From positions 64,411 through 128,410 of the IMG/VR virus record IMGVR_UViG_3300033463_000032: a DNA stretch of 64,000 nt; one strand, given 5' to 3'. This DNA is from a virus. Its lineage: Duplodnaviria; Caudoviricetes. Below are positions 2,666 to 50,754 of the stretch, one piece after another (the stretch's first letter is position 1; every line of letters begins with the position of its first letter). The translations under genes and the position numbers were made by a program. The notes beneath the pieces are model-generated. The model worked only from the letters and a program-made list of their open reading frames with translations, made no database searches and was not told where the DNA came from.

Positions 2666-4567
2666 ATGGCTACTAATGATTCATCTTATAAGGGTTTTAA
2701 TTCACCACTCAAAGTAAGAGTAACTAGAATTGATGATCCTAGACAAATGAATAGAGTGCAAGTATACATACCTTCTTATCATGGAACGTTTGAAGAAGAT
2801 ATGGTTGGTTATGGGGATGATCTCGGTAATTATCCTTGGGCATCTATGTGTTCAATTTTGTTTAAAGATGGTAATAACTTTACCAGTGGTTCATTAGAAG
2901 AATTGTATTCCGGTGATCTTCCAATGATATTTCCATCTGTAGGTACTATAGGTTGGGTTTTATTTGAAGGTGGAGATGTAAGAGCTCCTATTTACATGGG
3001 TTCACTTGGGAAAGGTGAAGTTAATGAAACAGTAGAAGGTTCTTATACTGGTAGTGACAATAATAATCAGATCATTGCTAATGGTTCATCTGAATTGTCT
3101 GTAATGGCAAATATCATCTTTGAACAAGAAGGTGGTGGCAAGAATTATGCTAACATCAATCCTCTTGATGTAGATGCTATTTCTATTGGAGTTCTTCAAT
3201 GGCATGCAGATAATGGTAGAGAATTAATGAGAAGGATTAAAGAAAGAAATTCTTCAAATTATATTTCAATCTACAATGCTAACTCAGCTACATTTACTAT
3301 TGATAAATCTTGGAAAGACTTCTATGTAACTAAAGGTGATAACAACTATAATGCAATTAAAGAAATTATTAATTCTACCGAAGGTCATCAATGTCAAGAT
3401 GAATATGTAAACGAATATTTGTCTAATTATGTAGAACAAGGTAAGAGTGTAGGTGTTACTGATTATAAAGCACAAATCTATTTTTGTGATATGTATAACC
3501 AGTCACCTGCAGGTGCTATGAAGATTGCTAAATTGTGTTCTAATAAGTCTATAGACGGATTACACCAGGAAACTCTTAATGGTGGGCATTGGTTAGGTGG
3601 AAATCAATATCATAACAGAGATAGAAGAATTAGAGTATATAACAAAGTAAAAACTATGGATATGCAAGCAGAATTAAATTCTGCTACTTCTTCTACTTTG
3701 TCCGGTAGTCTGTCATTAGAAACTACGTTTGCTTTTCCTACAGAAGTAAAAGACATAAAAGTTCCTTATGTAAAAAATATTCATCCATATATCACCATTC
3801 AAGAAGATGGTATTGAAGGTAAAGAAGTAAGAGCAGCACATAAAGGAACTGCCAAAGCTTATAAGGATTCTAATAAGAATGGTAAATGGGTATCTATTAA
3901 ATCCGGTAAGTATGAAACCAGATATATGCATTTAAGTAACTTTAGTTCTAAACTTCCTACATTGCAAACAGATGTTGAAGTAGAAGTTGGTGATGTAATC
4001 GGATATATTGGCCATACCGGAAATGTATCTAAAGCTTGTTTAGATTTTACTCTTTTGGTTAATGGTAACGCAAAAGATCCAGTACCATATCTTAATGGGG
4101 TTTCTAACAATCTTACTGCTACTGGTCAAGGTATTATTGATACTGCCGTAAACTGGATGATTAATATTGCTAATGATCCTCAATATGGTTATTCACAAGA
4201 TGCTAATATGAGGTGGGGAAACGGAGCATATGACTGTAGTTCTTTGGTGATCAGCGGGTATTCTGCTGCCGGATTAGGGGTAAAAGAGGCTGGTGCTACA
4301 TATACTGGAAATATGCGTTCTGCATTTGTTCAATGTGGATTTACTGCTATACCATTTTCTGCTAGTATGGAATTGCTTAGAGGTGATGTATTACTTAATG
4401 AGATATACCATACTGCTTGCTATATAGGTAACAATCAGATTGTTCATGCATCAAGCTCCAGAGGACACCCGGAAAAGGGAGATCAAACTGGAGATGAAGT
4501 CTATGTAAGAGATATGTATATCTATAGTGAGGGTTGGGATTATGTGCTTAGATATACAGGATCATAA
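2666..4567 (+). CDS. Baseplate spike/lysin: gp5 OB-fold + lysozyme-like + degenerate M23 + NlpC/P60
   Basis: DDPRQMNRVQVYIP..PWA..P.VG..GWV.FEGGD..PIYMG (gp5 OB-fold); EQEGGG.NY..IN..D..AISIG.LQW; YMHL..GDVIGYIG.TG (M23-like); YDCSS..HTA (NlpC/P60). Confidence 0.85.
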   Translation: MATNDSSYKGFNSPLKVRVTRIDDPRQMNRVQVYIPSYHGTFEEDMVGYGDDLGNYPWASMCSILFKDGNNFTSGSLEELYSGDLPMIFPSVGTIGWVLFEGGDVRAPIYMGSLGKGEVNETVEGSYTGSDNNNQIIANGSSELSVMANIIFEQEGGGKNYANINPLDVDAISIGVLQWHADNGRELMRRIKERNSSNYISIYNANSATFTIDKSWKDFYVTKGDNNYNAIKEIINSTEGHQCQDEYVNEYLSNYVEQGKSVGVTDYKAQIYFCDMYNQSPAGAMKIAKLCSNKSIDGLHQETLNGGHWLGGNQYHNRDRRIRVYNKVKTMDMQAELNSATSSTLSGSLSLETTFAFPTEVKDIKVPYVKNIHPYITIQEDGIEGKEVRAAHKGTAKAYKDSNKNGKWVSIKSGKYETRYMHLSNFSSKLPTLQTDVEVEVGDVIGYIGHTGNVSKACLDFTLLVNGNAKDPVPYLNGVSNNLTATGQGIIDTAVNWMINIANDPQYGYSQDANMRWGNGAYDCSSLVISGYSAAGLGVKEAGATYTGNMRSAFVQCGFTAIPFSASMELLRGDVLLNEIYHTACYIGNNQIVHASSSRGHPEKGDQTGDEVYVRDMYIYSEGWDYVLRYTGS

Positions 4568-14154: not shown

Positions 14155-14199
14155 CTTTCTTTTATTTAAAAAGGATCATAAGAAGATAAACTTCTTCCT

Positions 14200-14231
14200 A
14201 TAATCCTAAACACATTTTATGATTTTTAGAT
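14200..14231 (-). promoter_or_regulatory. Class II (middle-type) phage promoter
   Basis: Minus strand ATCTAAA-N10-TGTGTT-TAG-GATTAT. Confidence 0.7.
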
Positions 14232-16725: not shown

Positions 16726-16917
16726 TTATGCTTTGAGTTTTCCTTCTTTAAATAGATCCATTATTATCCGGTTAGCCATTGCTATGCTACACTTAGGATC
16801 ATAGCCGGTAATGTAAGAAACAAGATCAAATCTGGTAGGAGCTTGATTAGCCATAGCTTTGTAATTTTCAATAAATCTGTTACAAGATTTCCTAATCTGA
16901 TTTTCTTTATTAGTCAT
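16726..16917 (-). CDS. Small monocistronic early-type protein
   Basis: Own promoter, GCAAGTTA leader, AGGAG RBS and terminator. Confidence 0.75.
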   Translation of the reverse strand: MTNKENQIRKSCNRFIENYKAMANQAPTRFDLVSYITGYDPKCSIAMANRIIMDLFKEGKLKA

Positions 16918-16964
16918 ATTGTGTATCTCCTGTTATTGTGTAACTTGCTCACTTTTTCCTATTA

Positions 16965-20910: not shown

Positions 20911-23299
20911 TTACTCCTTTAAATACTTAAACTGCTTTACTGTTACAGCACCTATGCCATTTCTTGTAGGAAGAATGATAAACTTCTCGTCTTCTCCTAC
21001 ATTGGCTTTTATTTCCTGTTGTATTTTTTCCATATACATATTCACTTGGTTAGTTGCCATATCTCCAACTTCAACCTGAATGAATGTCAGATTGCCCAGT
21101 TTAGAAACGAATGATGTACCACAGGATTTACAGGTGAAGGTTTTAGGATCTAACTGACCACCACACTGACTACAAACTAATGGTAATAATTGCATTGTTA
21201 TTTTTCCTTTCTATTAAACTTAGAACATGCTTTACTAGATCCTAATCTCCAACCTACCTTGTGTCTAAAGCCATGATCATAGACTTTACAAGTTCCATAA
21301 ATACCACCTTTGCTGCCTATTTGATCAATATCAAAACATTTACAATTTTTGCATTTGTTATTTCTAGCCATTAGGAATCCTCATCTGGTTTATCATTATC
21401 CAGGAATAAACTAACGTAGATAACATCAGTACATGGTGCATAGATAAGATAAACCTCATGCTCTAGCAAATATTCAGTTAGAACATCTTCAATATAAAGA
21501 GAATGTTCTGATGGATTGGTAAGATCAAGTTTAATATCTGGTCTACTAATCTGATTAGGATCTTCACCATAGGTAATCCAAATATTACTGGTAGTATTTT
21601 TGATAAGTTCTTTAAGTTTCATCTTGTTTCTCCTTATACATCAACCGTAAACATTACTAGCCTTAGTATTTTGAATTCCTGGATATCCGGATCTTCAAAC
21701 GGAAACTTGTTACAGTAAGGACATGTAATGGTATCTGGCTTTTCTTCATCAGAACATTCATATCCAGTCCAATTTTCATCAACATCAATATAAACTGCAT
21801 TACTAGATGTTGTAGTTTTTACAAGATCCGCTGTAAAAAATTTATCACTACCATCCGGCATAAATCTGTTTACCTTTACTGAACTTATATAATTACCACA
21901 TTTTTCACATCTGATCATAAAATATCTCCTAACTAGATGGTTCTATAATATAAAACACAAAAGAAATTATTTTGATTTTTCCAATTCTTCTTTTACCAGT
22001 TCTATTATTTCCTTAGCAGTAAGATAACCTATTGGTTCTCCACCATTTTGAGTACTAGTCGTAAGCTCCAGTCTCATATCGTCACGGTCTAACCAGTAAG
22101 AATACCCACCATAAGTACCATAACCGTGTATTACAGACCATTTGTTATGATTAATCCAAAACCAAGTCCTACAGATCCAATGATCTTCCGGTATTACGGA
22201 GGACTGATCTTTCCATTCAATTCCTAACATGTCTAGATCACTTCTTAATCTAACCATCTCCGGTGTAACGTGAAATGGTGACTGCTTGTATTTTGAATTC
22301 ATCTTTTTCTCCTTATATATCATATTTGATAAAAAGAACTAATGATTTACCATAGATATAGAAAGTAACTACTTCCGCAAATGCTATTTCATCTTTTAAA
22401 TACTTGTGAATCTGGAATTGAGAATACTTAGGATTAAACATACAGAATGAATAATTACAAGTTATTTCATTACCATTTTCCAGACTTTCAATACACTCAT
22501 CAAGAAAACATTCTGGAACAATATATATGTTTCCTTGTTCACACCATTTATTTACAAAATCATTAACAGTCATTTTAAATCTCCTGGTATTATTTATTTT
22601 CTGGTAAGGTTAAGAAAGAATCTCTAAGGTCTACATAATCATCTACAGATCCTAATGCTTGATATTCAAGAAATAGTTTGTTGAATTCTTCTTTTACCAG
22701 AGATGGTGCAAAACCTTTTTCTGTATATCTCCAATATAATTGATCCATCTGAGATGCTAATGTTTTCCTTTTTGCATCTATCTTTGCATTACGGTCCTTT
22801 CTGAATTGCTCTCTAGTGTTCTTAATATCTTTTTCAATAACTACTGCTAAGAGTATTGCCAAGATGATAACAAACACTACAACACAAAGTCCTACAACAA
22901 GAAATTTTTCATTCATATTCATTTTTTACACCCCTTATCCTTTCTTAAGTCTGCTCCACACCAGGGACAATATGATGTTAATAATCTATATTCCCATCTG
23001 TTTTGGCATTTTGGACACCTGACACTATATCCAGTAGCAGTTTCTTCTTTAATCCAGGTGTCAGCATCTTCTGTTTTACAATCCTTGTTTTCCAGAATAC
23101 CTGTCAAAAAGTATCTGTTCTGCTGCACTCCTTCAATAAAAGATAGGATCTTATCAATACATACCGGACACACTTCTTCTCCAACAAAACTAGCAACAGA
23201 TTGGTGATGTTCTCTGGTCCCTTGTACTTTAACCTCACCAACACATATACCTGCTGAATTAAGTTCTTTCTTACAGATATCACATAAATGTTTGATCAT
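20911..23299 (-). CDS. Cluster of small hypothetical ORFs (20911-21195, 21371-21622, 21634-21918, 21967-22323, 22313-22573, 22590-22922 with TM segment, 22919-23299)
   Basis: Packed ORFs with RBS; several CxxC zinc-ribbon motifs. Confidence 0.65.
21945..21976 (-). promoter_or_regulatory. Class II promoter
   Basis: Minus strand ATCAAAA-N10-TGTGTT-TTA-TATTAT. Confidence 0.7.
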
Positions 23300-23785: not shown

Positions 23786-25573
23786 TCATCCTTTTTCCCA
23801 AGTTTTCATAATACTTTTCCAATTCCTTAAATTCTTCTTTTGTAAGTCCAAAAACCTCAAAATAACTCCATTCATAGCAAATCCTTATGGTCAATCCCAT
23901 ATGATCATATATGGTACATAAGGAATCACCACCAATTCCTGGACACTCAAACAAACCACAGTCAGCAACAGCATAATGCTATTCAATTATTGCTTTTGCT
24001 ATATCCAACTTAGTTGTCATTTTCTTCACCTTCTTACTCACCAAACGTATTGAGCATACATCTTTTAACTGCGGATATAATTTCACTACCGCAAACTGTA
24101 TATCTCTTCCCATCAATTTCTAACTCTACTTTGTTGCCATCACACCAATGATTATGGATTTTAATTTTGGGTTGTGATGGTGTTGAATAATCATTTATTT
24201 CTGTTGTAATGTTCATTCTTTATCACCCCTTATCCCTCCCATACTCTTCTCATGGCTTCGTCATAATTCTTAGCCTTTACAAGAACTACCATATCAATAC
24301 CAACTCGCACAGCATACATTCTTGATTGAAGATAAATTACCTGTTCTTTGGTACTCTCCGCCCAATCGAAAAGATCTTTATATACTTTTACTCTGTCATT
24401 TGCGTTCATTCTTTATCACCTCTCATACTCTTTACCCCCTTAACGATAAGAGAAGCATTAAGAGGAATATCCTCATCTTTACTCGTATAGTCATTCCTCA
24501 CAAATAAGTAAAGCCCCTCTTCGCTTTCTTCGTGTCCGATGATACTCATTATCAAATAAGTACCATTAGGGTTATAAGCCCTGTACGCCTCAAAGATATC
24601 CTTCATGTTAGTAAGGATATATTTTTCAAGATCCTCACGGTCATTAGTCTTTAATACCTTGCTTTCGAGCAAGTCCCTCTCAGTAAAAGTATCGAATTTC
24701 ATATCAAAAATCCCCTTTCTTAAAATCTGTACCGGACACAACGTTTTCACAGAATATCTGGAATTCCTGTTCCGCTCTTTGTTCGTCAGCCTCTTTCTGA
24801 TAAGCCTTCCCCTTCTCGAAAGCCTCTTCAAGGGCTTTCTTCGTTTCTTTTCTTGATTTTATCCCGGATCTTGTTTACAAGGTTTTTGATACCGACTCCA
24901 AAGATAATCAAAATCACTAATAGGATAGCAAAACCAATGATTGCATATCCTAAAAGTTCTTCAATAATTTTGATCTCAAAATACTTTTCCATCATATTAA
25001 GATTTTTCCCCTTCACTCTGCTTCTGCTAAAATCAAAACTGCAAGTATTCCTAAGAAACTTGCATAGATAACACTTATAACTACATACCAGATCATAAGA
25101 TCACCTCATCCTTTCCAAGTATTCTGAAATCATAATCTTTATATGGAAATTTCAAATCCGGGTTATTCCACAAAGCTATGATGTAATAAACATCTGTATC
25201 AAAATTGAAACCTTCCGTAACTGTTCCCCAAACCCCTTGATAACAACCTACAAGGATCAGAACTTCCTTACCTATTAATTCTTTATTAACCATTGATCTT
25301 CTCCTTAACTGGATAAACATAAATGAAAGTACATGAATGTCCTTTATAGCAACTAACATCATCAAATGAACCTACTTGATAAGCAGTAAGATCATACTGG
25401 TGTTCTTTGATAGCCTGCTTACGGAAATCCATTAAATTACCTTCATAAAGACAACCCATTGAAGATGCACCATCTTCAAAAACTTCTACTTCCATTACAC
25501 AAATCCATTCTGTATGGATATTGTAAAACAGAATATCCTCAAAACTTACCTTGTTATTGTTATTGCGAATCAT
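23772..25573 (-). CDS. Cluster of small hypothetical ORFs (23772-~24020, 24034-24216, 24406-~24702, 24828-25016, 25093-~25293, 25286-25573)
   Basis: Packed co-oriented ORFs with RBS. Confidence 0.55.
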
Positions 25574-25607
25574 ATTATGTTCTCCTTTCTCTAACTTGCT
25601 TATGTAT

Positions 25608-25735: not shown

Positions 25736-26071
25736 TTAGATTATGTCTTGATTATTTTCTACAAGGATTGGCTTTACCCTGATGTTAAAGGCACCAGAGT
25801 TTGTAGTAGTTTTGATGAAACCCTTTCCCTTGATTACTTCATAGAGTTCCGGTGCTGCTTCCTTGAGTTTCTTAAGATCTACAGATTCAGAAGTGCTACC
25901 AACTGTTTCATAAAGAGTAGCAGACCTTGTAGTAATCTTATCTTTCTGCTCCAAGAGAAAAGCCTTATGGATCTTTTCTCTAAGAACCTTCATATTTTCT
26001 TCGATCTCTGTTTTCTGAATTGAAAGAACTGCATAAGCCTTTGTGTACTTTTCGAAATTGAACTTTGCCAT
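25736..26071 (-). CDS. Monocistronic coiled-coil early-type protein (start MAKFNF)
   Basis: AGGAGG RBS before ATG 26071; VDLKKLKE..PELY motif. Confidence 0.75.
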   Translation of the reverse strand: MAKFNFEKYTKAYAVLSIQKTEIEENMKVLREKIHKAFLLEQKDKITTRSATLYETVGSTSESVDLKKLKEAAPELYEVIKGKGFIKTTTNSGAFNIRVKPILVENNQDII

Positions 26072-26173
26072 AATGTACCTCCTATTTGTAACTTGCTTTG
26101 TTTTAACTTGCATAGATATTCTACAAAAACTGGTAAGGAATTTATATCAAATTCATTGTTCTTTTATCAAATT

Positions 26174-29450: not shown

Positions 29451-29489
29451 ATATACAGGCTCTAACAAGTTAATACAGGAGGTATATTT

Positions 29490-30089
29490 ATGCAGTTGAT
29501 GAACTATTATGACCAGATTGAAGGTATGATCAACAAAACTGCTAGTCGTTACTACAAATTTTCCGGTATGTCTTTTGAAGATCTTACACAGGAGTTGTGG
29601 TTAAAGTTGATACAGGAAGATCTTTCTGAAATTAAAATGGTAAAGAAAACCATTGAAAACAGAGCTAAGAATATTGTCAGAGATAATGCTAAGTTTCAAA
29701 AAGATGTATGCTGCTACTTCGAAGATGAGGTAGAAACCTATACTTATGTTAGTGAGTATATGATGGAAGAAGAATCCAGATTTGATTTAATAATGCTTGA
29801 TGAAGAATATGTAAGATCCTTTGTTGCTTCTCTTGATAAGCAGGAAAGGATTTATTTGGTTGTTAAAGGATATCTGGTAGGTAATCTTGATTTCTTTGAG
29901 AAGGAATACAATAACTATGTTGATTGTCTGGGTTCAAAGAAAAGATCTTATCTGGAAGAAACCAAGAAGTATCTTGATGATGTGATAGGAAAATATTTTC
30001 TTAATTTTAACCATATGAAGATGTGGAAGTTTAAGAAGAGTTTAATGAATAAAATGTCTAAATCTATGGAGGTATTTGCTAATGCTTAA
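29490..30089 (+). CDS. Phage sigma-70 family (ECF-like) sigma factor
   Basis: Region 2-like I...A..Y.....EDL.QE.WLKL......I.N...N..RD. Confidence 0.65.
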   Translation: MQLMNYYDQIEGMINKTASRYYKFSGMSFEDLTQELWLKLIQEDLSEIKMVKKTIENRAKNIVRDNAKFQKDVCCYFEDEVETYTYVSEYMMEEESRFDLIMLDEEYVRSFVASLDKQERIYLVVKGYLVGNLDFFEKEYNNYVDCLGSKKRSYLEETKKYLDDVIGKYFLNFNHMKMWKFKKSLMNKMSKSMEVFANA

Positions 30090-40675: not shown

Positions 40676-41890
40676 ATGGCTAGACCAAAGAAAGAAGTTT
40701 CTAATAATACTGCTATTGATTTAAATAATGACTTCTTTTCTGAACTTACAAAAGATACTGATTTTGTAATAGCAGATAAAGGATCTTTAATGCACTCAAG
40801 ATCTAAGGTAATTACACCAATGCCGGTACTTAATTGTATCTGGGGTGGTGGATTGCCTTTAGGAATTATGTGTGAAGTATCTGGACCTCCTAGTTCTGGT
40901 AAGTCTACATTTCTTTATCAGTGTATGGCTAACTATCAGAGAGATTATCCTAATGGTGTTTCTGTAATTCTTGATATGGAATCCAGTATGGATAATGATA
41001 GACTTACTGCTTTAGGTGTTGATATGGAGAAAGTATTAAGACTTCCCTCTGTTTCTATGGAAAAAGCATTTGGTAATCTTTTTGCATTATTGGAAAAGTT
41101 AAAAAATGCTATAGTGGATCATCCTGATCTGTCTGTTTTTATTATTTATGATAGTTTGGCTGCACAATCAACTGATAGTGAACAAGAGGCTGCTAAAAAC
41201 GGAAAGTCTACTTTAGGTGCAGGTACAGTAAGAGAAGATACCAGAACATTGAAGCATAATCTTAACAATGTTCTTCCTTATATGGAAAAGTTACCTATCT
41301 TTTTAGGATTGATTAATCAGGTAATGGTTAAGCCTAATCCTTATGGTGGTCCTGCTAAAGTAGAATCCGGTGGTGGTAATGCTCTCAAGCATTTGTGTCA
41401 TACTCATATAGTGTTTGGTTCTTCTAAAGATATTTATGAAGATCTGTTTATAGTCAGAAATGAATCTAAGGTAGAACTTCATAAGTCTAAGTTGTCACCC
41501 AAGATGGTAGATATTCCTTGCCACATAGATGTAACTAAAGGTGGTAAGATTGATGAAACCGATTCTTTTGTTAAGTATTTGACGGAAAAGAGTGTGGGGT
41601 TCATTACTACTGGTACATGGTACCAATTTGGTGATTATCTTAAAGAAACTATGTTTTTGACATATCCTCAATTATCTTCCCAGGAAGAGTTGAAGAAACT
41701 TTTAACACCTAATTATAGAAAAGATAATATGTATGAATTGATTTCTAATAATAAGGATCTTTTCTATTTCCTACAGGTTGCATTAATTGATTTCTTATGT
41801 GCTATTTACCCAGCACAAAAGATTATTACAGAATCCTATAAAGACAGTTTGATGAAAGATTGTAAATATTTTTCAAATACTGAAATCTAA
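40676..41890 (+). CDS. RecA/UvsX-like recombinase
   Basis: GGGLP.G..EVSGPPSSGKST, DME, YDSLAA, INQ, GG.ALKH. Confidence 0.93.
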   Translation: MARPKKEVSNNTAIDLNNDFFSELTKDTDFVIADKGSLMHSRSKVITPMPVLNCIWGGGLPLGIMCEVSGPPSSGKSTFLYQCMANYQRDYPNGVSVILDMESSMDNDRLTALGVDMEKVLRLPSVSMEKAFGNLFALLEKLKNAIVDHPDLSVFIIYDSLAAQSTDSEQEAAKNGKSTLGAGTVREDTRTLKHNLNNVLPYMEKLPIFLGLINQVMVKPNPYGGPAKVESGGGNALKHLCHTHIVFGSSKDIYEDLFIVRNESKVELHKSKLSPKMVDIPCHIDVTKGGKIDETDSFVKYLTEKSVGFITTGTWYQFGDYLKETMFLTYPQLSSQEELKKLLTPNYRKDNMYELISNNKDLFYFLQVALIDFLCAIYPAQKIITESYKDSLMKDCKYFSNTEI

Positions 41891-41916
41891 ATTTTATAAA
41901 ATGTGTTATATGTTAT
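41885..41916 (+). promoter_or_regulatory. Class II promoter
   Basis: ATCTAAA-N10-TGTGTT-ATA-TGTTAT. Confidence 0.7.
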
Positions 41917-41921
41917 GAAGA

Positions 41922-41986
41922 GTGCTTGAACCACCTCTTGTAACTTGATTAGTGGTTGGGTCTAGGGGTTAGCTCCTAGACCTTTC
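41922..41986 (+). ncRNA. Candidate trans-acting sRNA (or structured 5' UTR)
   Basis: Downstream of promoter; AACCAC/GTGGTT stem with 17-nt loop CTCTTGTAACTTGATTA; then GGTCTAGGGG-ttag-CTCCTAGACC-TTT hairpin. Confidence 0.5.
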
Positions 41987-42004
41987 CTATTAAAAGGAAA
42001 CAAT

Positions 42005-42685
42005 ATGATTGATCTGGTGCCGATAGAAAAAAAGATACATGCATATATAAATTCCGGGGATTTGGAAAATCCGGATCTTTTTATGCAGATAAAAAATCTA
42101 TCTACCATTTGGTTATATAGACATAGGAAATGTAATTGCTATGCAGATGCAGAAGAAGTAGGAACTATCTTAGCTGAATTTCTTTATCTTAGATTATTTA
42201 ATCCTAATGCTAAACCTATAGGAAGATGGATAATGTATATTTCCAAAGCCTATCCTATAGCATTGACTGAATGGGCAAAGATAAGTAATACACAAATAAT
42301 TGACACCAAGAATAATGAACGTCTGGAAAAAGCAATTCTTCAAATGTCAGCAGGATCTACAATAGATAATGAAGATATTGCTAAGATGTATAACTGGAAT
42401 TATTTGAATACACTCCCTGATTTAGTTGATTCTGTAATGTTTGGTTCTAGATTTGCTATGGACACAGTTTCTTATTTAAATGCCAAGATTACTTTGTTGA
42501 TTTCTGTTTATCATAACAGATACATTTGTTTTGGTTTATCCGAAGAAGATTCAATGTATGCCAGAATGTTATACAGAGTTTTATGTGATCGTATGATGGT
42601 GGATCTTAGACCAGACATTAGTGATAACTCATTAACGTTATTGCAAGATTTCTATTTAGAAGAATATATAGATGAACTTGAATGA
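42005..42685 (+). CDS. Hypothetical protein (possible transcription factor)
   Basis: Helical ORF next to the Mor-like gene. Confidence 0.6.
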   Translation: MIDLVPIEKKIHAYINSGDLENPDLFMQIKNLSTIWLYRHRKCNCYADAEEVGTILAEFLYLRLFNPNAKPIGRWIMYISKAYPIALTEWAKISNTQIIDTKNNERLEKAILQMSAGSTIDNEDIAKMYNWNYLNTLPDLVDSVMFGSRFAMDTVSYLNAKITLLISVYHNRYICFGLSEEDSMYARMLYRVLCDRMMVDLRPDISDNSLTLLQDFYLEEYIDELE

Positions 42686-44275: not shown

Positions 44276-46791
44276 ATGGATAATCAAGAAGCAATTGAAA
44301 TACTTAAACAATATCCGGATATGGTAATTAATTCTTTTGAAAAACCTTTAGATTATAAAGGTGCTTGTAATAAAGGTATTGAAGCATTACAAGCTTGGGA
44401 TGAAATTGAAAAAAGTGGTATGCCTACCTTGGTAATTGAAGATTGTGCGTATATTTTAACCAGAGGTCATATAGAAGCTTTGGTTAAATATAACGAAGAA
44501 CAGAACAATAAGGATCTTGAAGACTTTGGTAAGTTCTTAAAGAAGGTGGTAAATAATGAACAATGATTTGATTAGTCGTAGTGCTTTGAAAGAGGTGCTT
44601 AAAGAATGTGCTTATTCTTATGATGGTGTAAACACTTGGATAATGAAAGATGAAGTTTTAGGTATCATCGACAATGCCCCGACGGTTGAAGTCAGAGATA
44701 ACTTCGATATTGGATATGTTCAAGGCTTAGAAGATGGTCAGAAAAGACCGCAAGGAGAGAAAGTGAGGTAATATTATGGAATGGGCTTTAACATTCTTTG
44801 CAGGTTGGCTTGCTTGTATGATTTATGAGGGTATTAAAAGAAGAAGGGGTGAGAAGGAATGATACGAAGAAAATGCAATTCCCCTAAATTCAATGTGATT
44901 GTATGTTGTCAAGGTGAACCAAATTATTATCAACATTCAACATTGATAGGTGCTTTGGTTGAATATGCCTATCAGTATATTAAACATAAAAAATATGGAA
45001 CTATGAATTTTTCTTTAAAAGAGTATGAGAGGTGATAAAGAATGAAAGAACCGTTGTTTTTTAAGATAAAACTCAAACTGTATCACTTCTTTTCAAATAT
45101 TTACGGACACGACTATTGTTGTTGTAGAAATCCGTTTCATAATTGCAAAAAATGTGGTTTCTATCTTGAACTTGAAGAAGATAGGAGAGAGGAATATGAG
45201 AGGCAAAGAAGATGAAAGTAATAATTGATATTGACGAAGATATGTATAAGGCATGTCAACGTGCGGTTAATAATCCTAAAATGACGGTAGATGAAGTAGA
45301 TGTAGCAATCGCAAACGGCACACCTGTTTTAACCGAGGGCGATTTGATTAGCCGTGAGGCGTTGAAAAAGGCAATTCAAGATAACGGATATAAACATTAT
45401 TTTGAAATCTTTGAAATTATCGACAATGCCCCGACAGTTGAGATCAGAGATAACTTCGATATTGGATATGTTCAAGGCTTAGAAGATGGTCAAAAAAGAC
45501 CGCAAGGAGAGTGGATTCCTGTTGGTGTGATTTTGCCCGAAGCAGGAAAAAGCGTACTTGTTTGTGTTAAAACGCAAGGTGGTATATCGCAATTTGTTAG
45601 TGAAAGATTTAACGGCAATAATTGGTCAGCATTATGCGGAAGGGAACCTATCGCTTGGCAACCTTTACCGAAACCGTATGAAGGGGAAGAACAATGAGTG
45701 TAAAGAATGGCAAGGTTTGTTGTAATTGTCGAAGATGTAAGAGAGTAAAAGAGAGAGGACAGGTGGCGTGTTATTGTGAGATAGACAATCGTTATCTTTC
45801 CTATGTTACAGTTATGACTTACTGGTGTAGACGTTGGGCAAAGGTGATGTGTTAATTCGTTTGAAGTGTCATTCTCTTAGGTGTATTCCGAAAGAAGGTG
45901 GTAAAGATGGTAAATTGTGAGGGTTGTATTCACAAAGATTTGTGCAAAGCAAACGGAGTAAAAGACGAATACGTTGCGGATTCCTGCTCGTTTTACGAGA
46001 AGAAAAAAGAGAAGAAGTGGACACCTATTAGTGAAGGTGTTCCCTCTGAATATTGCAGGTGTTGGATAACAACTGTTGATGGAAGAGTTTCGGCTGACTA
46101 TTTTACTGGTGGAGGTTTTGCTCTTACTAGTAAAGATAGGATAGTTGCTTGGATGCCAAGTGATGAAGAACCCGAACCTTATGGTACAGAAATAAGCGAC
46201 GAAGAAGCAATAGATATCTTAAAAGAAGTTAAAGAGTTGGCAGTATGTTTGAATCAGAAATATGAAAAGGCGTTAGATATAGCAATCAAATCCTTGAAGG
46301 AAAATGAATATGCTAGAAAGATGAAAGAAAACGGTTACATGATGATTTGGACAAAGGATGTGTCAAAATGAAACAATATTGTCGCTACTGTATAAATCTA
46401 TATGTCGGAAACAGTATCTACTGTCAGGCAAAGCGCAAGATACTGACTGAATCCACCACAAAATGTATCAACACCTGCAAGGAGTTTGAGTTTTGTGAAA
46501 TGGATACCTATGACACAAGTAAGGAATACAAGCCTCATACTAAGGCTCATTTTCCACACAAGATAACCACAGAACAAATATCTATGTTTGAGGAGGTAAA
46601 TAACAATGACAGACGCAACGTTGAGAAAATTAGAGAATGACGAAGTAGGGAAACAGGTATTGTCTTTTATACCTCACAACTTAGGAATACCTCTATCAGA
46701 GGTAATGGATATTTCAATTTACAGAGATCGTAATGGAAACTTAACTGACATTGTAATTCTGTTTGAAGATAAGCACTGGGAACATGCCTGA
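44276..46791 (+). CDS. Cluster of modular small ORFs (44276-44566, 44556-44771, 45212-45697 and 45898-46371 with DUF551-like WIP..AW.P domain, ~46368-46640, 46606-46791)
   Basis: Recurring peptide modules; CpG-richer composition. Confidence 0.65.
44667..44759 (+). repeat. 93-bp direct repeat, copy 1
   Basis: 89/93 identical to 45419-45511. Confidence 0.95.
45419..45511 (+). repeat. 93-bp direct repeat, copy 2
   Basis: 89/93 identical to 44667-44759. Confidence 0.95.
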
Positions 46792-46822
46792 TGTGAGTTT
46801 GCTTAAGAAGGAGAACAAACTA

Positions 46823-47452
46823 ATGAGTAAGTATTGGAGACATTTTAAGACAGTTTGTAAGCATAAGTGGTATGTATTTAAAGAATGTAGAGCTTGTGGT
46901 TTTACATGGTTAGGAATAGTTCATGATTTGTCCAAGTTTGGGCCATCTGAATTCATATCTTCTGCAAGGCATTTTCAAGGAGACAGATCACCAATTGATG
47001 CTGAAAAAGAAAAACTGGGATATTCAAAAGCCTGGCTGCATCATAAAAGTCATAACAAACATCACTGGGAATATTGGACTGATTTTGCTGATGATGGATC
47101 TGTTATTGCTAATGAACTGCCTTTCAAATATCTGGTTGAAATGATTTGTGACTGGATAGGAGCAGGAAAGGCATATCGGAAAGAAGAATGGACACCGGAT
47201 GAACCATTAAAATATTACAACAAGGTAGAAGATAAGCTACACCTTCATCTTTACACGAAAGGTGAATTTGTATTTTTGTTATCACTTATTAGTCAAAACA
47301 GAATAGAAGAATTTCACAAGTATTGTAGAAGATTAAAAAATTATAGATCAGTAGTTAATAGAGCAGTAGCAGGAGGGTATACAAAAGAATTTAGTGATTT
47401 CTTACATGAAACTTTTATAGATAAAAAAGAATTTGGAAAACAGGAGTTTTGA
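46823..47452 (+). CDS. HD-domain phosphohydrolase (DUF5662-like)
   Basis: HK..V...HDLSK....EF; AWLHH..HN.HHWEYW; EMICDWIGAG; AAGGAG RBS. Confidence 0.8.
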   Translation: MSKYWRHFKTVCKHKWYVFKECRACGFTWLGIVHDLSKFGPSEFISSARHFQGDRSPIDAEKEKLGYSKAWLHHKSHNKHHWEYWTDFADDGSVIANELPFKYLVEMICDWIGAGKAYRKEEWTPDEPLKYYNKVEDKLHLHLYTKGEFVFLLSLISQNRIEEFHKYCRRLKNYRSVVNRAVAGGYTKEFSDFLHETFIDKKEFGKQEF

Positions 47453-47455
47453 ATA

Positions 47456-48108
47456 ATGGCTAATTATAAGTTTAAATGCCCTTTTAAATCAGAATGTGAT
47501 GATGAAGTAGTTTGTGAATCCTGTAAGTATTTTATAGGATTTCAAGATGGAGCTAACTTCATTGCAGAGAAGTATCAAGAAGAATTAATAAAAGCACTTG
47601 AAGAAGATCTTTTAGATGATCCAGAGGATGAAGAATGAAAATTAAAACTTTTGGAAATAGTATTCCAATTGATGATATTACTGGTTATTAAAACTAAGAA
47701 GATTTGGTGATTATATGGATAACAAAGAAGCAGATCAATTAATAAAAGACTGTAGCAAAGAGTTAGGTAAAGGTTATCATCCTGGATATGTACCGGAATA
47801 TAAGAATGATCCTACATACAGAGCTTTAGAACTTATTTATGGAAAAGAAATGATGCAGAATATAACGAGGGAGAAAAAAGAAGATGAAAGCAATAAAGCA
47901 AATTGAATTGACCGAAGAAGATCAGAAACTTATTCTGGATTTTATGAAGCTTGTAGATGAAATGGCTGAATATACCGGAAAGAGTATTGATGATATTTTT
48001 GAATATTTGGCACAGAATACTGCTGTTATTCCGGGGACTAGTGTGGATAAGGTTTCTTGTGATTGGATGTTAAAATTTGGGAATACAATTCCTATTGATG
48101 ATATTTAA
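47456..48108 (+). CDS. Small hypothetical ORFs (47456-47638, 47715-47906, 47884-48108)
   Basis: Packed ORFs. Confidence 0.55.
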
Positions 48109-48287
48109 GAATGTGAGGATCTGACAAATGGATGAACAAGATCTAAAAGATATAAAAACAGTTGTTATAGCATTGCTACAACATATAAGACAGAGATATG
48201 GTGATATTTATTATTTTAGTTGGGATGAAGTAGAAGAACTAAAAAAGATTGAATCTAGATTGCTAGGTAATACTAAGGAGGAATAAT

Positions 48288-49082
48288 ATGTCATATTTTA
48301 GAGCAACATACGAAGGACACAACAGATACCATATTGATTTCTATACCGAGGATGAAAATCGTTTCGAACTGGTAGAAATTAATTGCAAAGAGGCTGTCAA
48401 GGAAAAGTATTCATCCTTTACAACGTCTTACAGTTGTGGAATGTATGGTGTCGAGTTTAGTACAGATAAAAAGGAAATATTCTTTGATATTCAAGCCCTT
48501 TGCAGAGCCATAGTTGATACCGAAGAAGAGGAGAAAGCGAAAAATGGTGAAGAACTAATGAGAGTGCGCAAAGTTGAATATGATGATGAGGATGATGAAG
48601 ACTTTGACGAAGAAGAAGACGAAGAAGAAACCGACTACTATGACGAAGAAGACCATCTTGTTAAGTACGCCAAGAGTGAGTTGCGTAGGATTACTCGCAT
48701 TGGAGACGAGTATCAGGAAAGAATGAACAAGGATGTTCTCGCTCTTATCAAGGTTATCAGCAGTCAGGGACATTCAGGATTCAGCATTAACTGTGTTCTT
48801 AACTACTTCAACAGGCTTGCAAGGTTCAAGCCATTATCTCCACTTACAGGAGAGGATGACGAATGGGGAGAGATAACAAACGGACAGTATCAGAACAAGA
48901 GATATTCTGCTGTGTTCAAAGACAAGGATGGCAAAACCTATGACATAGAGGGCAAGGTATTTTCTGATGATGATGGCAAGTCATGGTTTCAGAATGGGAA
49001 TAGCCGTGTAGAGGTAACATTCCCTTATACCGTTCCTGATGAACCTGAAAAGGTAATCTTAGTGCCGAAGGAGGAAAAGTAA
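48288..49082 (+). CDS. Phage protein: duplicated N-terminal unit, acidic linker, and GHSGFS/PLSPLTGEDDEW domain
   Basis: AAGGAGG RBS; recognisable phage domain in the C-terminal half. Confidence 0.75.
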   Translation: MSYFRATYEGHNRYHIDFYTEDENRFELVEINCKEAVKEKYSSFTTSYSCGMYGVEFSTDKKEIFFDIQALCRAIVDTEEEEKAKNGEELMRVRKVEYDDEDDEDFDEEEDEEETDYYDEEDHLVKYAKSELRRITRIGDEYQERMNKDVLALIKVISSQGHSGFSINCVLNYFNRLARFKPLSPLTGEDDEWGEITNGQYQNKRYSAVFKDKDGKTYDIEGKVFSDDDGKSWFQNGNSRVEVTFPYTVPDEPEKVILVPKEEK

Positions 49083-50754
49083 ATGAGTGAAAATGATGCA
49101 AACAAGGATTTCGAATTAAACGGAGATTTTTGGGTTGTTGAACTTGAACGTAGTCTTACACAATTACATCAAAAGTTAGAAGAACTGGAAAGAAATATTC
49201 GCAATCAGGAAAGAGATTATGAATATTTAAAAAAGGATAAGAATAACACTATCAACTTTCTTCTTGAACAACTTTACAAGACTGGTAGTAAGAAGTTTGG
49301 GAAGTGGGAAGATATTGGTCATAGAGACTTTGTAAAATGCTCTAACTGTGGAGATACACATCTTCCTAACTTTTTCTGTCAAACCTGTGGAAGCATTAAT
49401 AATGTTGAAATGTATTTGTGTTATAAAAAAAGTTCTAAACCTGATGACGAATTAATAAAGTGTATGCAGGAATTACAAGAGGCACAGGAGAAAAACGGTG
49501 TTGAAGGAGAGAAATAATAATGGGTGACTTGGAGGATTTTCTACATAGTAAATCATTTGAGTGTATAGAGACTATTCCTAGGGAGTGTTCAAATTGTTCT
49601 TCTGAAATACATTCAAAGACTTTTGTAAAATGCTGTCCTTATTGTGGGGCTTCACAAGTTACAAAAATTACAGAATCACTGATACAATCTATGGAAGAAA
49701 TTCCTCAACTAATACTAAGTGATTATCTTAACACAAGACTTAACCGTTGGTGTGAACACTGTGAGACAGGAAGACTGGCGCATATAGATGCCCTTCATAG
49801 TAATGCCTGTTGGGGATGTTCGTTTAGATATATGAAGGATTATCGACATGAAGATTGTAAAGAACCGCCTAGAGGATATATTGAAGAGAAGATTCAATCC
49901 TGATATTCCGTTTAGATAATATGAGGACATAAAAGAAAGTGAGGTAATTATTTATGAAAGCATTTGTAGTGATTGATGTACCAGAAGATAAGATTGGAGA
50001 AGAAGTTACTATATTCTTAGATAGAAGATATACAGGTGATGCATATCAAGGATCTATATGGACTAAAAAACTTAGACCTTATCAAAAGTCTGCTTGTGAA
50101 TATTGTTTTCATGGAGAAAAGAAGCAAGAAGATTATCCTTGTAACAAGTGTAAGGAAATTCATGCTTCTACTGAAAACAAATCTTATTTTGAAAAGAAAT
50201 TGAAGAATTATGATAAAGATTTAATTAGTTTGGGTGAACATATAAATAGCAAAGATAAACAGACAGAAAGTTAATTATGGATTTATATTTCAAAGCACTA
50301 ACTCCTAGAGATTTTAAAGATTTTAATCCGGTTGCTACACCATACAAGATATGGTCAGAAGTTCTTAAGCAGCAGTTAAGAATCTATACTTATAAGAATA
50401 AGTCTTATGTGAAAGTTCCTGGATCTTCCTGGTATGAAATCATAAGTAAGAAGAAATATAAATGTGAAAACTTTGAAACTGAAATAGAAATGATATTACC
50501 TATACAGAAAGATGATGAGGATATTTTTTATGAAGTGTGATGCTTGTAAATCTATTTTCACAAAATGTTTTCGTTATGATGCTGATATTTGTGAAACCTG
50601 TAATTGGTATAAACTTTATAAACTTGGCTTTGAAGAGGGCGTTGAAGCTGGAAACTCTGCTTCTCTTGAGTTTATGGAAAAAGAGCTTGGTAATATAGAA
50701 AATAAAGTAAACGGACAACTTTACAGAAACAAGGATAATGATATTGTATGGTAG
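49083..50754 (+). CDS. Cluster of small Cys-rich ORFs (49083-49517, 49520-49903, 49954-50274, 50277-50540, ~50530-50754)
   Basis: Packed ORFs with CxxC motifs. Confidence 0.6.

Follow-up and report, generated by a model that had tools for sequence, protein, structure and literature searches.

The c4 RNA of phages P1 and P7 is a ~70-80 nt phage RNA whose exposed sequences pair with leader boxes at or upstream of the ribosome-binding site (RBS) and thereby block translation. It resides in the immunity region of temperate phages, is cut from a longer transcript and targets a single adjoining operon. In the present analysis, we characterized a 114-nt spacer (41891-42004) between a RecA/UvsX-like recombinase gene and a gene for a 226-amino acid (aa) protein in a 64,000-nt stretch of phage DNA, hereafter the window, which comprises bases 64411-128410, the second half, of the 128,410-bp virus record IMGVR_UViG_3300033463_000032. 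Judging from its sequence and that of its relatives, we consider it probable that this spacer encodes a trans-acting antisense RNA, i.e., a functional RNA that pairs with the leaders of early genes. The c4 RNA is the closest known system in its working, as its exposed boxes pair with a leader at the RBS in the manner proposed for the spacer RNA. Unlike c4, the spacer RNA has a promoter motif of its own, its putative targets lie 12-16 kb away in a 128-kb phage, and it may have several of them.

Other known regulators share single features with this element. P22 sar and lambda OOP, which are transcribed opposite their targets and are fully complementary to them, and P4 CI, which acts by premature termination in an immunity circuit, are likewise small phage RNAs controlling phage genes by base pairing; in contrast to these, the spacer RNA would be trans-encoded and would use a 10-bp seed plus a Shine-Dalgarno (SD) contact. 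Host-encoded small RNAs (sRNAs) of Firmicutes with C-rich loops, such as RNAIII and the Rsa RNAs of S. aureus and RoxS of B. subtilis, pair with SD regions without long complementarity; the spacer element likewise has a pyrimidine-rich, anti-SD-like CCUCU, with no sequence similarity between the two. In T4, the translational repressor RegA and the endoribonuclease RegB, which cuts GGAG in early SD sequences, carry out the task proposed here, namely post-transcriptional shutoff of early messages at ribosome-binding regions, but they are proteins, whereas the agent here would be an RNA that takes its specificity from a box next to the SD. To our knowledge, most base-pairing RNAs of phages fall into three groups, namely cis-antisense RNAs, RNAs of temperate-phage immunity and prophage sRNAs acting on host genes. 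A 2025 review of phage-derived sRNAs covers c4, STnc6030, AgvB and the phiR1-37 antisense RNAs, cites work on P22 sar and lambdoid-phage sRNAs, and also lists lambda OOP and P4 CI (PMC12197685). Within a limited check of the literature, the parts of that review on which we draw describe no trans-encoded RNA with which a lytic phage represses a group of its early leaders (PMC12197685).

The spacer consists of a promoter motif followed by two hairpins. A promoter-like motif of a second class, AATCTAAAT-N9-TGTGTTATA-TGTTAT (41885-41916, plus strand), overlaps the TAA stop codon of the recombinase gene exactly where the preliminary description of this locus had placed it. It belongs to a recurring class, as a scan of the window for ATCTAAAT-N9-TGTGTT with one mismatch or fewer returned five copies (14209-14231 and 21954-21976 on the minus strand, 37079, 41885, and 55630) vs. 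0.11 expected; the other half of the genome holds one more. At the other copies the motif lies 47-89 nt ahead of the start codon, and at 41885 it lies 120 nt ahead because two hairpins sit between. Hairpin 1 (41929-41957, plus strand) has a 6-bp stem (41929-41934/41952-41957; AACCAC/GTGGTT) and a 17-nt loop, CUCUUGUAACUUGAUUA (41935-41951). Hairpin 2 (41958-41983, plus strand) is terminator-like, with GC-rich pairs and a UUAG loop; both hairpins lie as first described, except that we count 11 pairs in the latter, G.U included. The sequence that follows is given as TTCCTATT and as UUCCUAUU. Positions 41921-41992 (72 nt) fold with -24.4 kcal/mol (z = -2.9; one of 200 shuffles was equally good). 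Across the loop of hairpin 1 runs a core, ACCUCUUGUAACUUGAUU (41933-41950, plus strand), in which an anti-SD-like ACCUCUU is followed by the seed UUGUAACUUG (41938-41947).

From this geometry of promoter and terminator a short RNA of ~60-65 nt (41921-41985, plus strand) is predicted, with its start set ~6-8 nt past the -10-like TGTTAT and its end at the end of hairpin 2. Termination there may be partial, judging from the sequence. The same RNA sequence falls in the 3′ untranslated region (UTR) of any UvsX read-through transcript as well as in the 5′ UTR of any transcript that continues into the 226-aa gene, and either of these could equally be the active species. In the window, no match to any Rfam family attained the gathering score, and a permissive search of 41800-42100 gave only sub-threshold, chance-level matches, none of them to C4; the spacer RNA is thus not a member of the c4 family. 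The DUF2815 RNA (RF03084) scored 18.1 bits vs. a threshold of 41.2 (E = 0.66) and covered only hairpin 2 and the RBS region. Two coding candidates were rejected. A minus-strand gene could draw on the SD-like GAGGTGG, but neither ATG, GTG nor TTG follows it at a distance suited to initiation, as had been remarked before, and the mini open reading frame (ORF) ATGAAGAGTGCTTGA lacks an SD and is unconserved. Elsewhere, two more copies of the second-class motif (14196-14231, minus strand, and in a relative's contig, L012:4590-4650) run directly into a strong hairpin with a run of U, or overlap with one, ahead of the following gene, in the same promoter-then-hairpin order as at 41885, but without a recognizable conserved loop sequence.

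The seed includes TAACTTG (41941-41947), the exact complement of CAAGTTA at 16941, 25592, 26089 and 26104 on the minus strand and at 29466 on the plus strand; the complementarity to four leaders on which the preliminary description was built thus holds at every position. Six of the 17 genome copies of CAAGTTA are sense-oriented and lie 5-10 nt upstream of an SD, in five leaders, the fifth of which was absent from the earlier list (leader of the genome-14640 gene, outside the window, with the box at genome position 14665 on the minus strand). Only 0.4 SD-proximal copies are expected (p about 4e-6), and CAAGTTA is the top non-SD 7-mer at -45 to -6 of start codons. The best predicted target (26077-26095, minus strand) is the leader of a gene for a 111-aa protein (25736-26071, phrog_6244) downstream of SbcC. 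Its box CAAGUUACAA (26086-26095) and the GAGGU of its SD (26077-26081) pair with the RNA through 10 bp, a 4-nt bulge and 5 bp, reproducing the two-part pairing across the SD claimed earlier. In the leader of a sigma-like gene (29490-30089), the box CAAGUUA is followed after 4 nt by AGGAGGU (29466-29484, plus strand). Further minus-strand boxes in the window are that of a 95-aa gene (25286-25573), at 25592-25598 and 5 nt upstream of the SD, and CAAGTTACA in the leader of a 63-aa gene (16726-16917), where the expected 9-bp match was found at 16939-16947.

The early promoter cassettes at 26151-26171, 25663, and 17019 (all minus strand) have TTTGATA(T/A)AAA...ACAA in common, share AAATATTGTATAGAT in two cases, and are sigma-70-like in layout (TTGATA-N18-TATAGA/TATAAA). 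All three of these minus-strand-block cassettes have the CAAGTTA box, which is missing from two similar cassettes located outside the window, in the genome's other half (window positions -55574 and -40293). The exact 10-mer CAAGTTACAA occurs only three times in the window; the copy at 49655-49664, on the sense strand (plus) inside the coding sequence 49520-49903, could be a further target or due to chance. Another copy of CAAGTTA, at SbcC codons 2-3, was rejected as a target, being absent from L012.

To rank targets, the hairpin 1 segment was compared with 176 start regions by duplex energy plus the opening energies of both partners; this seed-segment and accessibility score replaced full-length duplex folding, which gave meaningless long, loopy duplexes. 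The 26071-gene leader (hybrid -18.8, after accessibility -13.7 kcal/mol) came first of the 176, with a margin of 3.6 kcal/mol over the runner-up. When hybrid energy alone is considered, first place goes to the leader of the sigma-like gene (-25.0 kcal/mol), with the box, a small loop and a 7-bp SD contact. The leaders of the 25573, 16917 and genome-14640 genes lie at about -11 to -13 kcal/mol; individually, that of the 25573 gene, with 7 bp and a weak SD contact, gave -10.9 to -12.2 and that of the 16917 gene -13.4 kcal/mol. The ranking is consistent with the antisense model without being decisive, and the weight of the argument rests on covariation in relatives.

Two relatives were found in public assemblies through the 226-aa protein, one represented by contigs L004 and L005 (86% identity) and the other by L006 and the near-identical L011 (58-61%; UvsX 68-69%). 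The junction between UvsX and the 226-aa gene is kept in all of them, and their spacers retain the promoter motif and a core of the form ACCTCTTGT[A/G]A[C/T]TTGATT, and have a hairpin where the window has hairpin 2. In the L006 spacer, 16 of the 18 core positions are identical while the rest of the spacer has diverged and the flanking proteins are only 58-69% identical. Neither the 226-aa protein nor its alignment, used as query, recovered any loci in viral or JGI metagenome contigs. A DNA scan of viral contigs with the strict core pattern found none, and the relaxed pattern gave one viral and four metagenome matches, all of them chance by context and GC content.

More distant relatives (L007, L008, and L009/L010, with UvsX identities of 64, 59, and 65%, respectively) carry a single terminator-like hairpin in the spacer, and neither the promoter motif nor hairpin 1 is present in their spacers. 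A hairpin at the hairpin 2 position, with differing stem sequences, occurs in every relative examined (L004, L006, L007, L008, and L009). Because the distant relatives carry the terminator hairpin alone, hairpin 2 appears to be the ancestral terminator of the recombinase gene, upstream of which the promoter and hairpin 1 would have been inserted as a ~70-nt unit in one sub-lineage. Only hairpin 2 agrees with a plain terminator, i.e., a GC-rich hairpin after the stop codon whose position is kept in L007, L008, and L009; an ordinary terminator accounts for hairpin 2, and not for the promoter or the conserved core. A promoter ahead of a terminator has the layout of a small-RNA gene and not that of a promoter serving merely the next gene. 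Between the recombinase stop codon and the terminator hairpin, L007 (6547-6575) and L009 (6260-6285) share a conserved CU-rich stretch, TGTTT(T)CTCTTTTC(C)G, which might be an analogous anti-SD element in the 3′ UTR.

The L006 core provides a direct comparison of loop and leader, as its loop reads UUGUGAUUUG where the window has UUGUAACUUG. Under the antisense model, this UGAUUUG loop leads one to expect a CAAAUCA box in the early leaders of that phage, a prediction that was recorded before those leaders were examined. With SbcC as anchor, we obtained contigs L012 and L013, which are 99.9% identical and of which L013 comes from the same sample as L011. The leader after SbcC in both contigs, a positional ortholog with the common promoter cassette, holds CAAATCACAAATCA (...gtaagttaaagcaatcaCAAATCACAAATCAatagacacGGGGGtacacaaatATG in the relative vs. 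...CAAGTTAaaacaaagCAAGTTACAAatAGGAGGtacattATG in the window). Both core changes (A to G and C to U) are thus mirrored in the target leader, the 10-bp duplex UUGUAACUUG/CAAGUUACAA of the window becoming UUGUGAUUUG/CAAAUCACAA in the relative through two compensatory changes that keep Watson-Crick pairing (G-C replaced by A-U and U-A by C-G), while the remaining eight pairs stay the same. The covariation of loop and leader box that had been suggested as a test was therefore found as predicted. CAAATCA occurs nowhere else in L012 on either strand, and CAAATCACAA is expected by chance in a 60-nt leader with a probability of about 1e-4. A second L012 leader, of the gene at 3128, reads CAAAUUACAUGGAGG and forms 14 bp with the L006-type RNA, with one bulge, across the SD (-16.4 kcal/mol); the first reaches -23.5 kcal/mol, pairing of GGGGGUA with UACCUCU included. 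Cognate combinations of seed and leader are 2-4 kcal/mol better than non-cognate ones. In L016, from the same run as L004, in which the seed is unchanged, the leader of the sigma-like gene keeps CAAGTTAAT although both of its flanks differ.

Beyond these leaders, the early region of the relatives could be followed for a short distance. The SbcC-downstream leader is conserved in the L006-type phage though the first ORF behind it differs, as an unrelated 174-aa gene (L012:2058-2941) lies between this leader and the phrog_6244 ortholog (46% identity) of the window's 111-aa gene. At more distant SbcC loci (L014 and L015) the gene order is different and the box is not recognizable. A search with a 629-aa protein of L012, intended to extend the early region, yielded no new contig.

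Concerted change of loop and leaders would also be expected if the box were a double-stranded DNA site for a phage DNA-binding protein, for example a repressor acting as a roadblock downstream of early promoters; 41938-41947 would then be one more site, inverted, downstream of a second-class promoter, and all sites would change together with the specificity of the shared protein. The presence of the same 10-mer at both loci, the short tandem repeats of the changed motif at both loci in the relative and the unconserved stem of hairpin 1 suit this explanation. Nevertheless, the leader copies are all in sense orientation and keep 5-10 nt (in the relative up to 15 nt) from the SD whatever their distance from the promoter, the core at 41933-41950 preserves an anti-SD ACCUCU, which pairs with every target's SD at spacings that differ between targets and would be needless in a DNA site, the element lies exactly between a promoter motif and a terminator hairpin, and no candidate protein was identified. 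We therefore regard a DNA site as unlikely.

Several observations weigh against an antisense RNA. Some concern the RNA itself: the stem of hairpin 1 is identical in L004 and is not kept at the aligned columns in L006, the minimum-free-energy fold of the L006-type RNA partly pairs the seed, and the U-tract after hairpin 2, already noted as weak in the preliminary description, is poor and different in all three variants (UUUCCUAUU, UAAUCUAUUU, and UUUAUAUUAU). What is conserved is hence primary sequence, which fits a pairing surface and weakens the picture of a displayed loop. Others concern the leaders. CAAGTTA, which the same description cautioned also occurs by chance in coding regions, is as such unenriched (13 copies in the window vs. 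14.5 expected), three of the five CAAGTTA leaders offer only 7-9 bp at the box, and the 26071-gene leader is only tenth of 176 by pure hybrid energy. When loops were shuffled, 7 of 150 equaled the best accessibility-corrected target energy, since any CU-rich loop finds SDs; the first place of the 26071 gene has a marginal advantage over shuffled controls. Both L006-type leaders also keep GTAAGTTAAAGCAA, mismatched to their own loop, right after the -10 region. This motif is homologous to the first CAAGTTA of the 26071-gene leader, the upstream copy CAAGTTAAAA (26101-26110, minus strand) at the predicted 5′ end of the leader, whose sequence does not follow the change of the loop; in the relative it reads TAAGTTA and lies close to the predicted transcription start site. 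Part of the shared box may therefore be an independent early-leader motif, and the number of true targets is uncertain because the TAAGTTA motif does not covary. Finally, only three sequence variants and two seed variants exist, and the L006-type RNA was assigned to the phage of the L012/L013 leaders by the shared sample (L011 and L013) and similar divergence, not by a joining contig.

A further reading is coincidence, with hairpin 2 an ordinary UvsX terminator, the motif a promoter for the 226-aa gene and the complementarity to leaders without function. All relatives have the terminator hairpin whether or not they carry the extra unit, the 7-mer is no commoner across the genome than expected by chance and the energy ranking only marginally beats shuffles, all of which coincidence would accommodate. 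It would not readily account for a promoter upstream of a terminator, which is not expected if it serves the next gene alone, for the retention of 16 of 18 core positions in an otherwise diverged spacer, or for two predicted compensatory changes in an orthologous leader together with a second complementary leader, which independent evolution would produce with a probability of order 1e-4 to 1e-3. Coincidence thus appears improbable.

It is also conceivable that the unit acts in cis, as an attenuator or RBS-masking 5′ leader controlling the downstream 226-aa gene. In each of the three carriers the unit immediately precedes that gene, and promoter, hairpin, terminator and gene follow the classic order of an attenuator. 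As pointed out in the preliminary description, TTTCCT (41983-41988) can pair with AAAGGAA of the RBS in the window; this pairing is lost in the relative with 86% identity (L004, TAATCT), and SD masking by TTTCCT/AGGAAA was rejected as unconserved. Moreover, the spacing to the start codon differs by ~30 nt in L006, the folds showed no alternative, anti-terminator pairing with the conserved core, and a cis leader leaves the covariation with distant leaders unexplained. Although a cis role could coexist with a trans role, we judge a cis-acting leader very unlikely as the explanation. Of the two roles first considered for this locus, silencing of early leaders through the box and SD is favored by the conserved core and the compensatory changes, while the cis pairing with the downstream RBS is not conserved.

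A trans-acting antisense RNA suggests the following sequence of events. A second-class phage promoter overlapping the UvsX stop codon would start a transcript near 41921, which would end, at least in part, at the ancestral UvsX terminator hairpin (41958-41983) to give an RNA of ~60-65 nt. Its largely unpaired core, ACCUCUUGUAACUUGAUU, would pair with the box CAAGUUACAA and the adjacent SD in early leaders ~12-16 kb away, among which those of the sigma-like gene and of the operon that follows SbcCD are the clearest targets. With ribosomes thereby kept from binding, translation of early genes would be shut down once the second promoter class is active. Here we infer transcription, termination, timing and the direction of the effect (repression) from sequence. 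It is plausible to call the product of the 29490 gene sigma-like: although its direct matches are weak (phrog_351, 2.5e-4; TIGR02937, E = 0.021), 8 of the 23 members of its family contain Sigma70_r2 (best E = 5.7e-7), and a predicted model (pLDDT 81) has top Foldseek matches that are mostly extracytoplasmic function (ECF) sigma factors and non-significant (E 0.14-3). Feedback of the RNA on this gene is likewise inferred. That one RNA from the second promoter class closes the early phase of a large, probably virulent phage, including negative feedback on its own sigma-like factor, is a possibility that we advance only tentatively. In that case the RNA probably originated as an inverted duplicate of a target leader that came to lie before the existing terminator.

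The genome has direct terminal repeats and ~32% G+C. The recombinase gene (40676-41890, plus strand) matches phrog_97 (1.5e-45) and Pfam RecA (1e-15); the 226-aa gene (42005-42685, plus strand), downstream of the spacer, is without a family match, as its product matched nothing in Pfam, PHROG or PDB sequence comparison. It follows the recombinase gene in every relative examined (38-86% identity). The spacer lies within a plus-strand replication module of methylase, 5′-3′ exonuclease, DnaB-like helicase, primase, SSB-like protein and recombinase. The small minus-strand genes at ~13.5-29 kb form a block that includes SbcCD and looks like an early region, and the plus-strand sigma-like gene comes next. 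Endolysin and holin families in relatives point to a host that is Gram-positive. The window contains neither tRNA nor tmRNA genes, and blastn of the spacer region against GenBank phages gave no match. Ahead of the structural genes, before the window (genome positions 45599-50603), are long non-coding repeat blocks with a GGACAGTAGGTTCGAAACTATTTC core and a ~200-nt unit present three times. The relative with 86% identity (L004:8663-10528 and L016:2240-4903) has intein-containing genes (Intein_splicing, LAGLIDADG), one of which encodes an 887-aa DEAD/ResIII helicase.

If the spacer does encode such an RNA, a large phage would repress a group of its early messages at the ribosome-binding site by means of a trans-encoded RNA, adding an RNA-based mechanism to the temporal program of lytic infection and doing with RNA the job that the proteins RegA and RegB do in T4. 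The two natural pairs of seed and box, UAACUUG/CAAGUUA and UGAUUUG/CAAAUCA, would then amount to a compensatory-mutation experiment supplied by nature, and the locus would show a route by which such an RNA can originate, namely the insertion of an inverted, leader-like sequence between a stop codon and a terminator.

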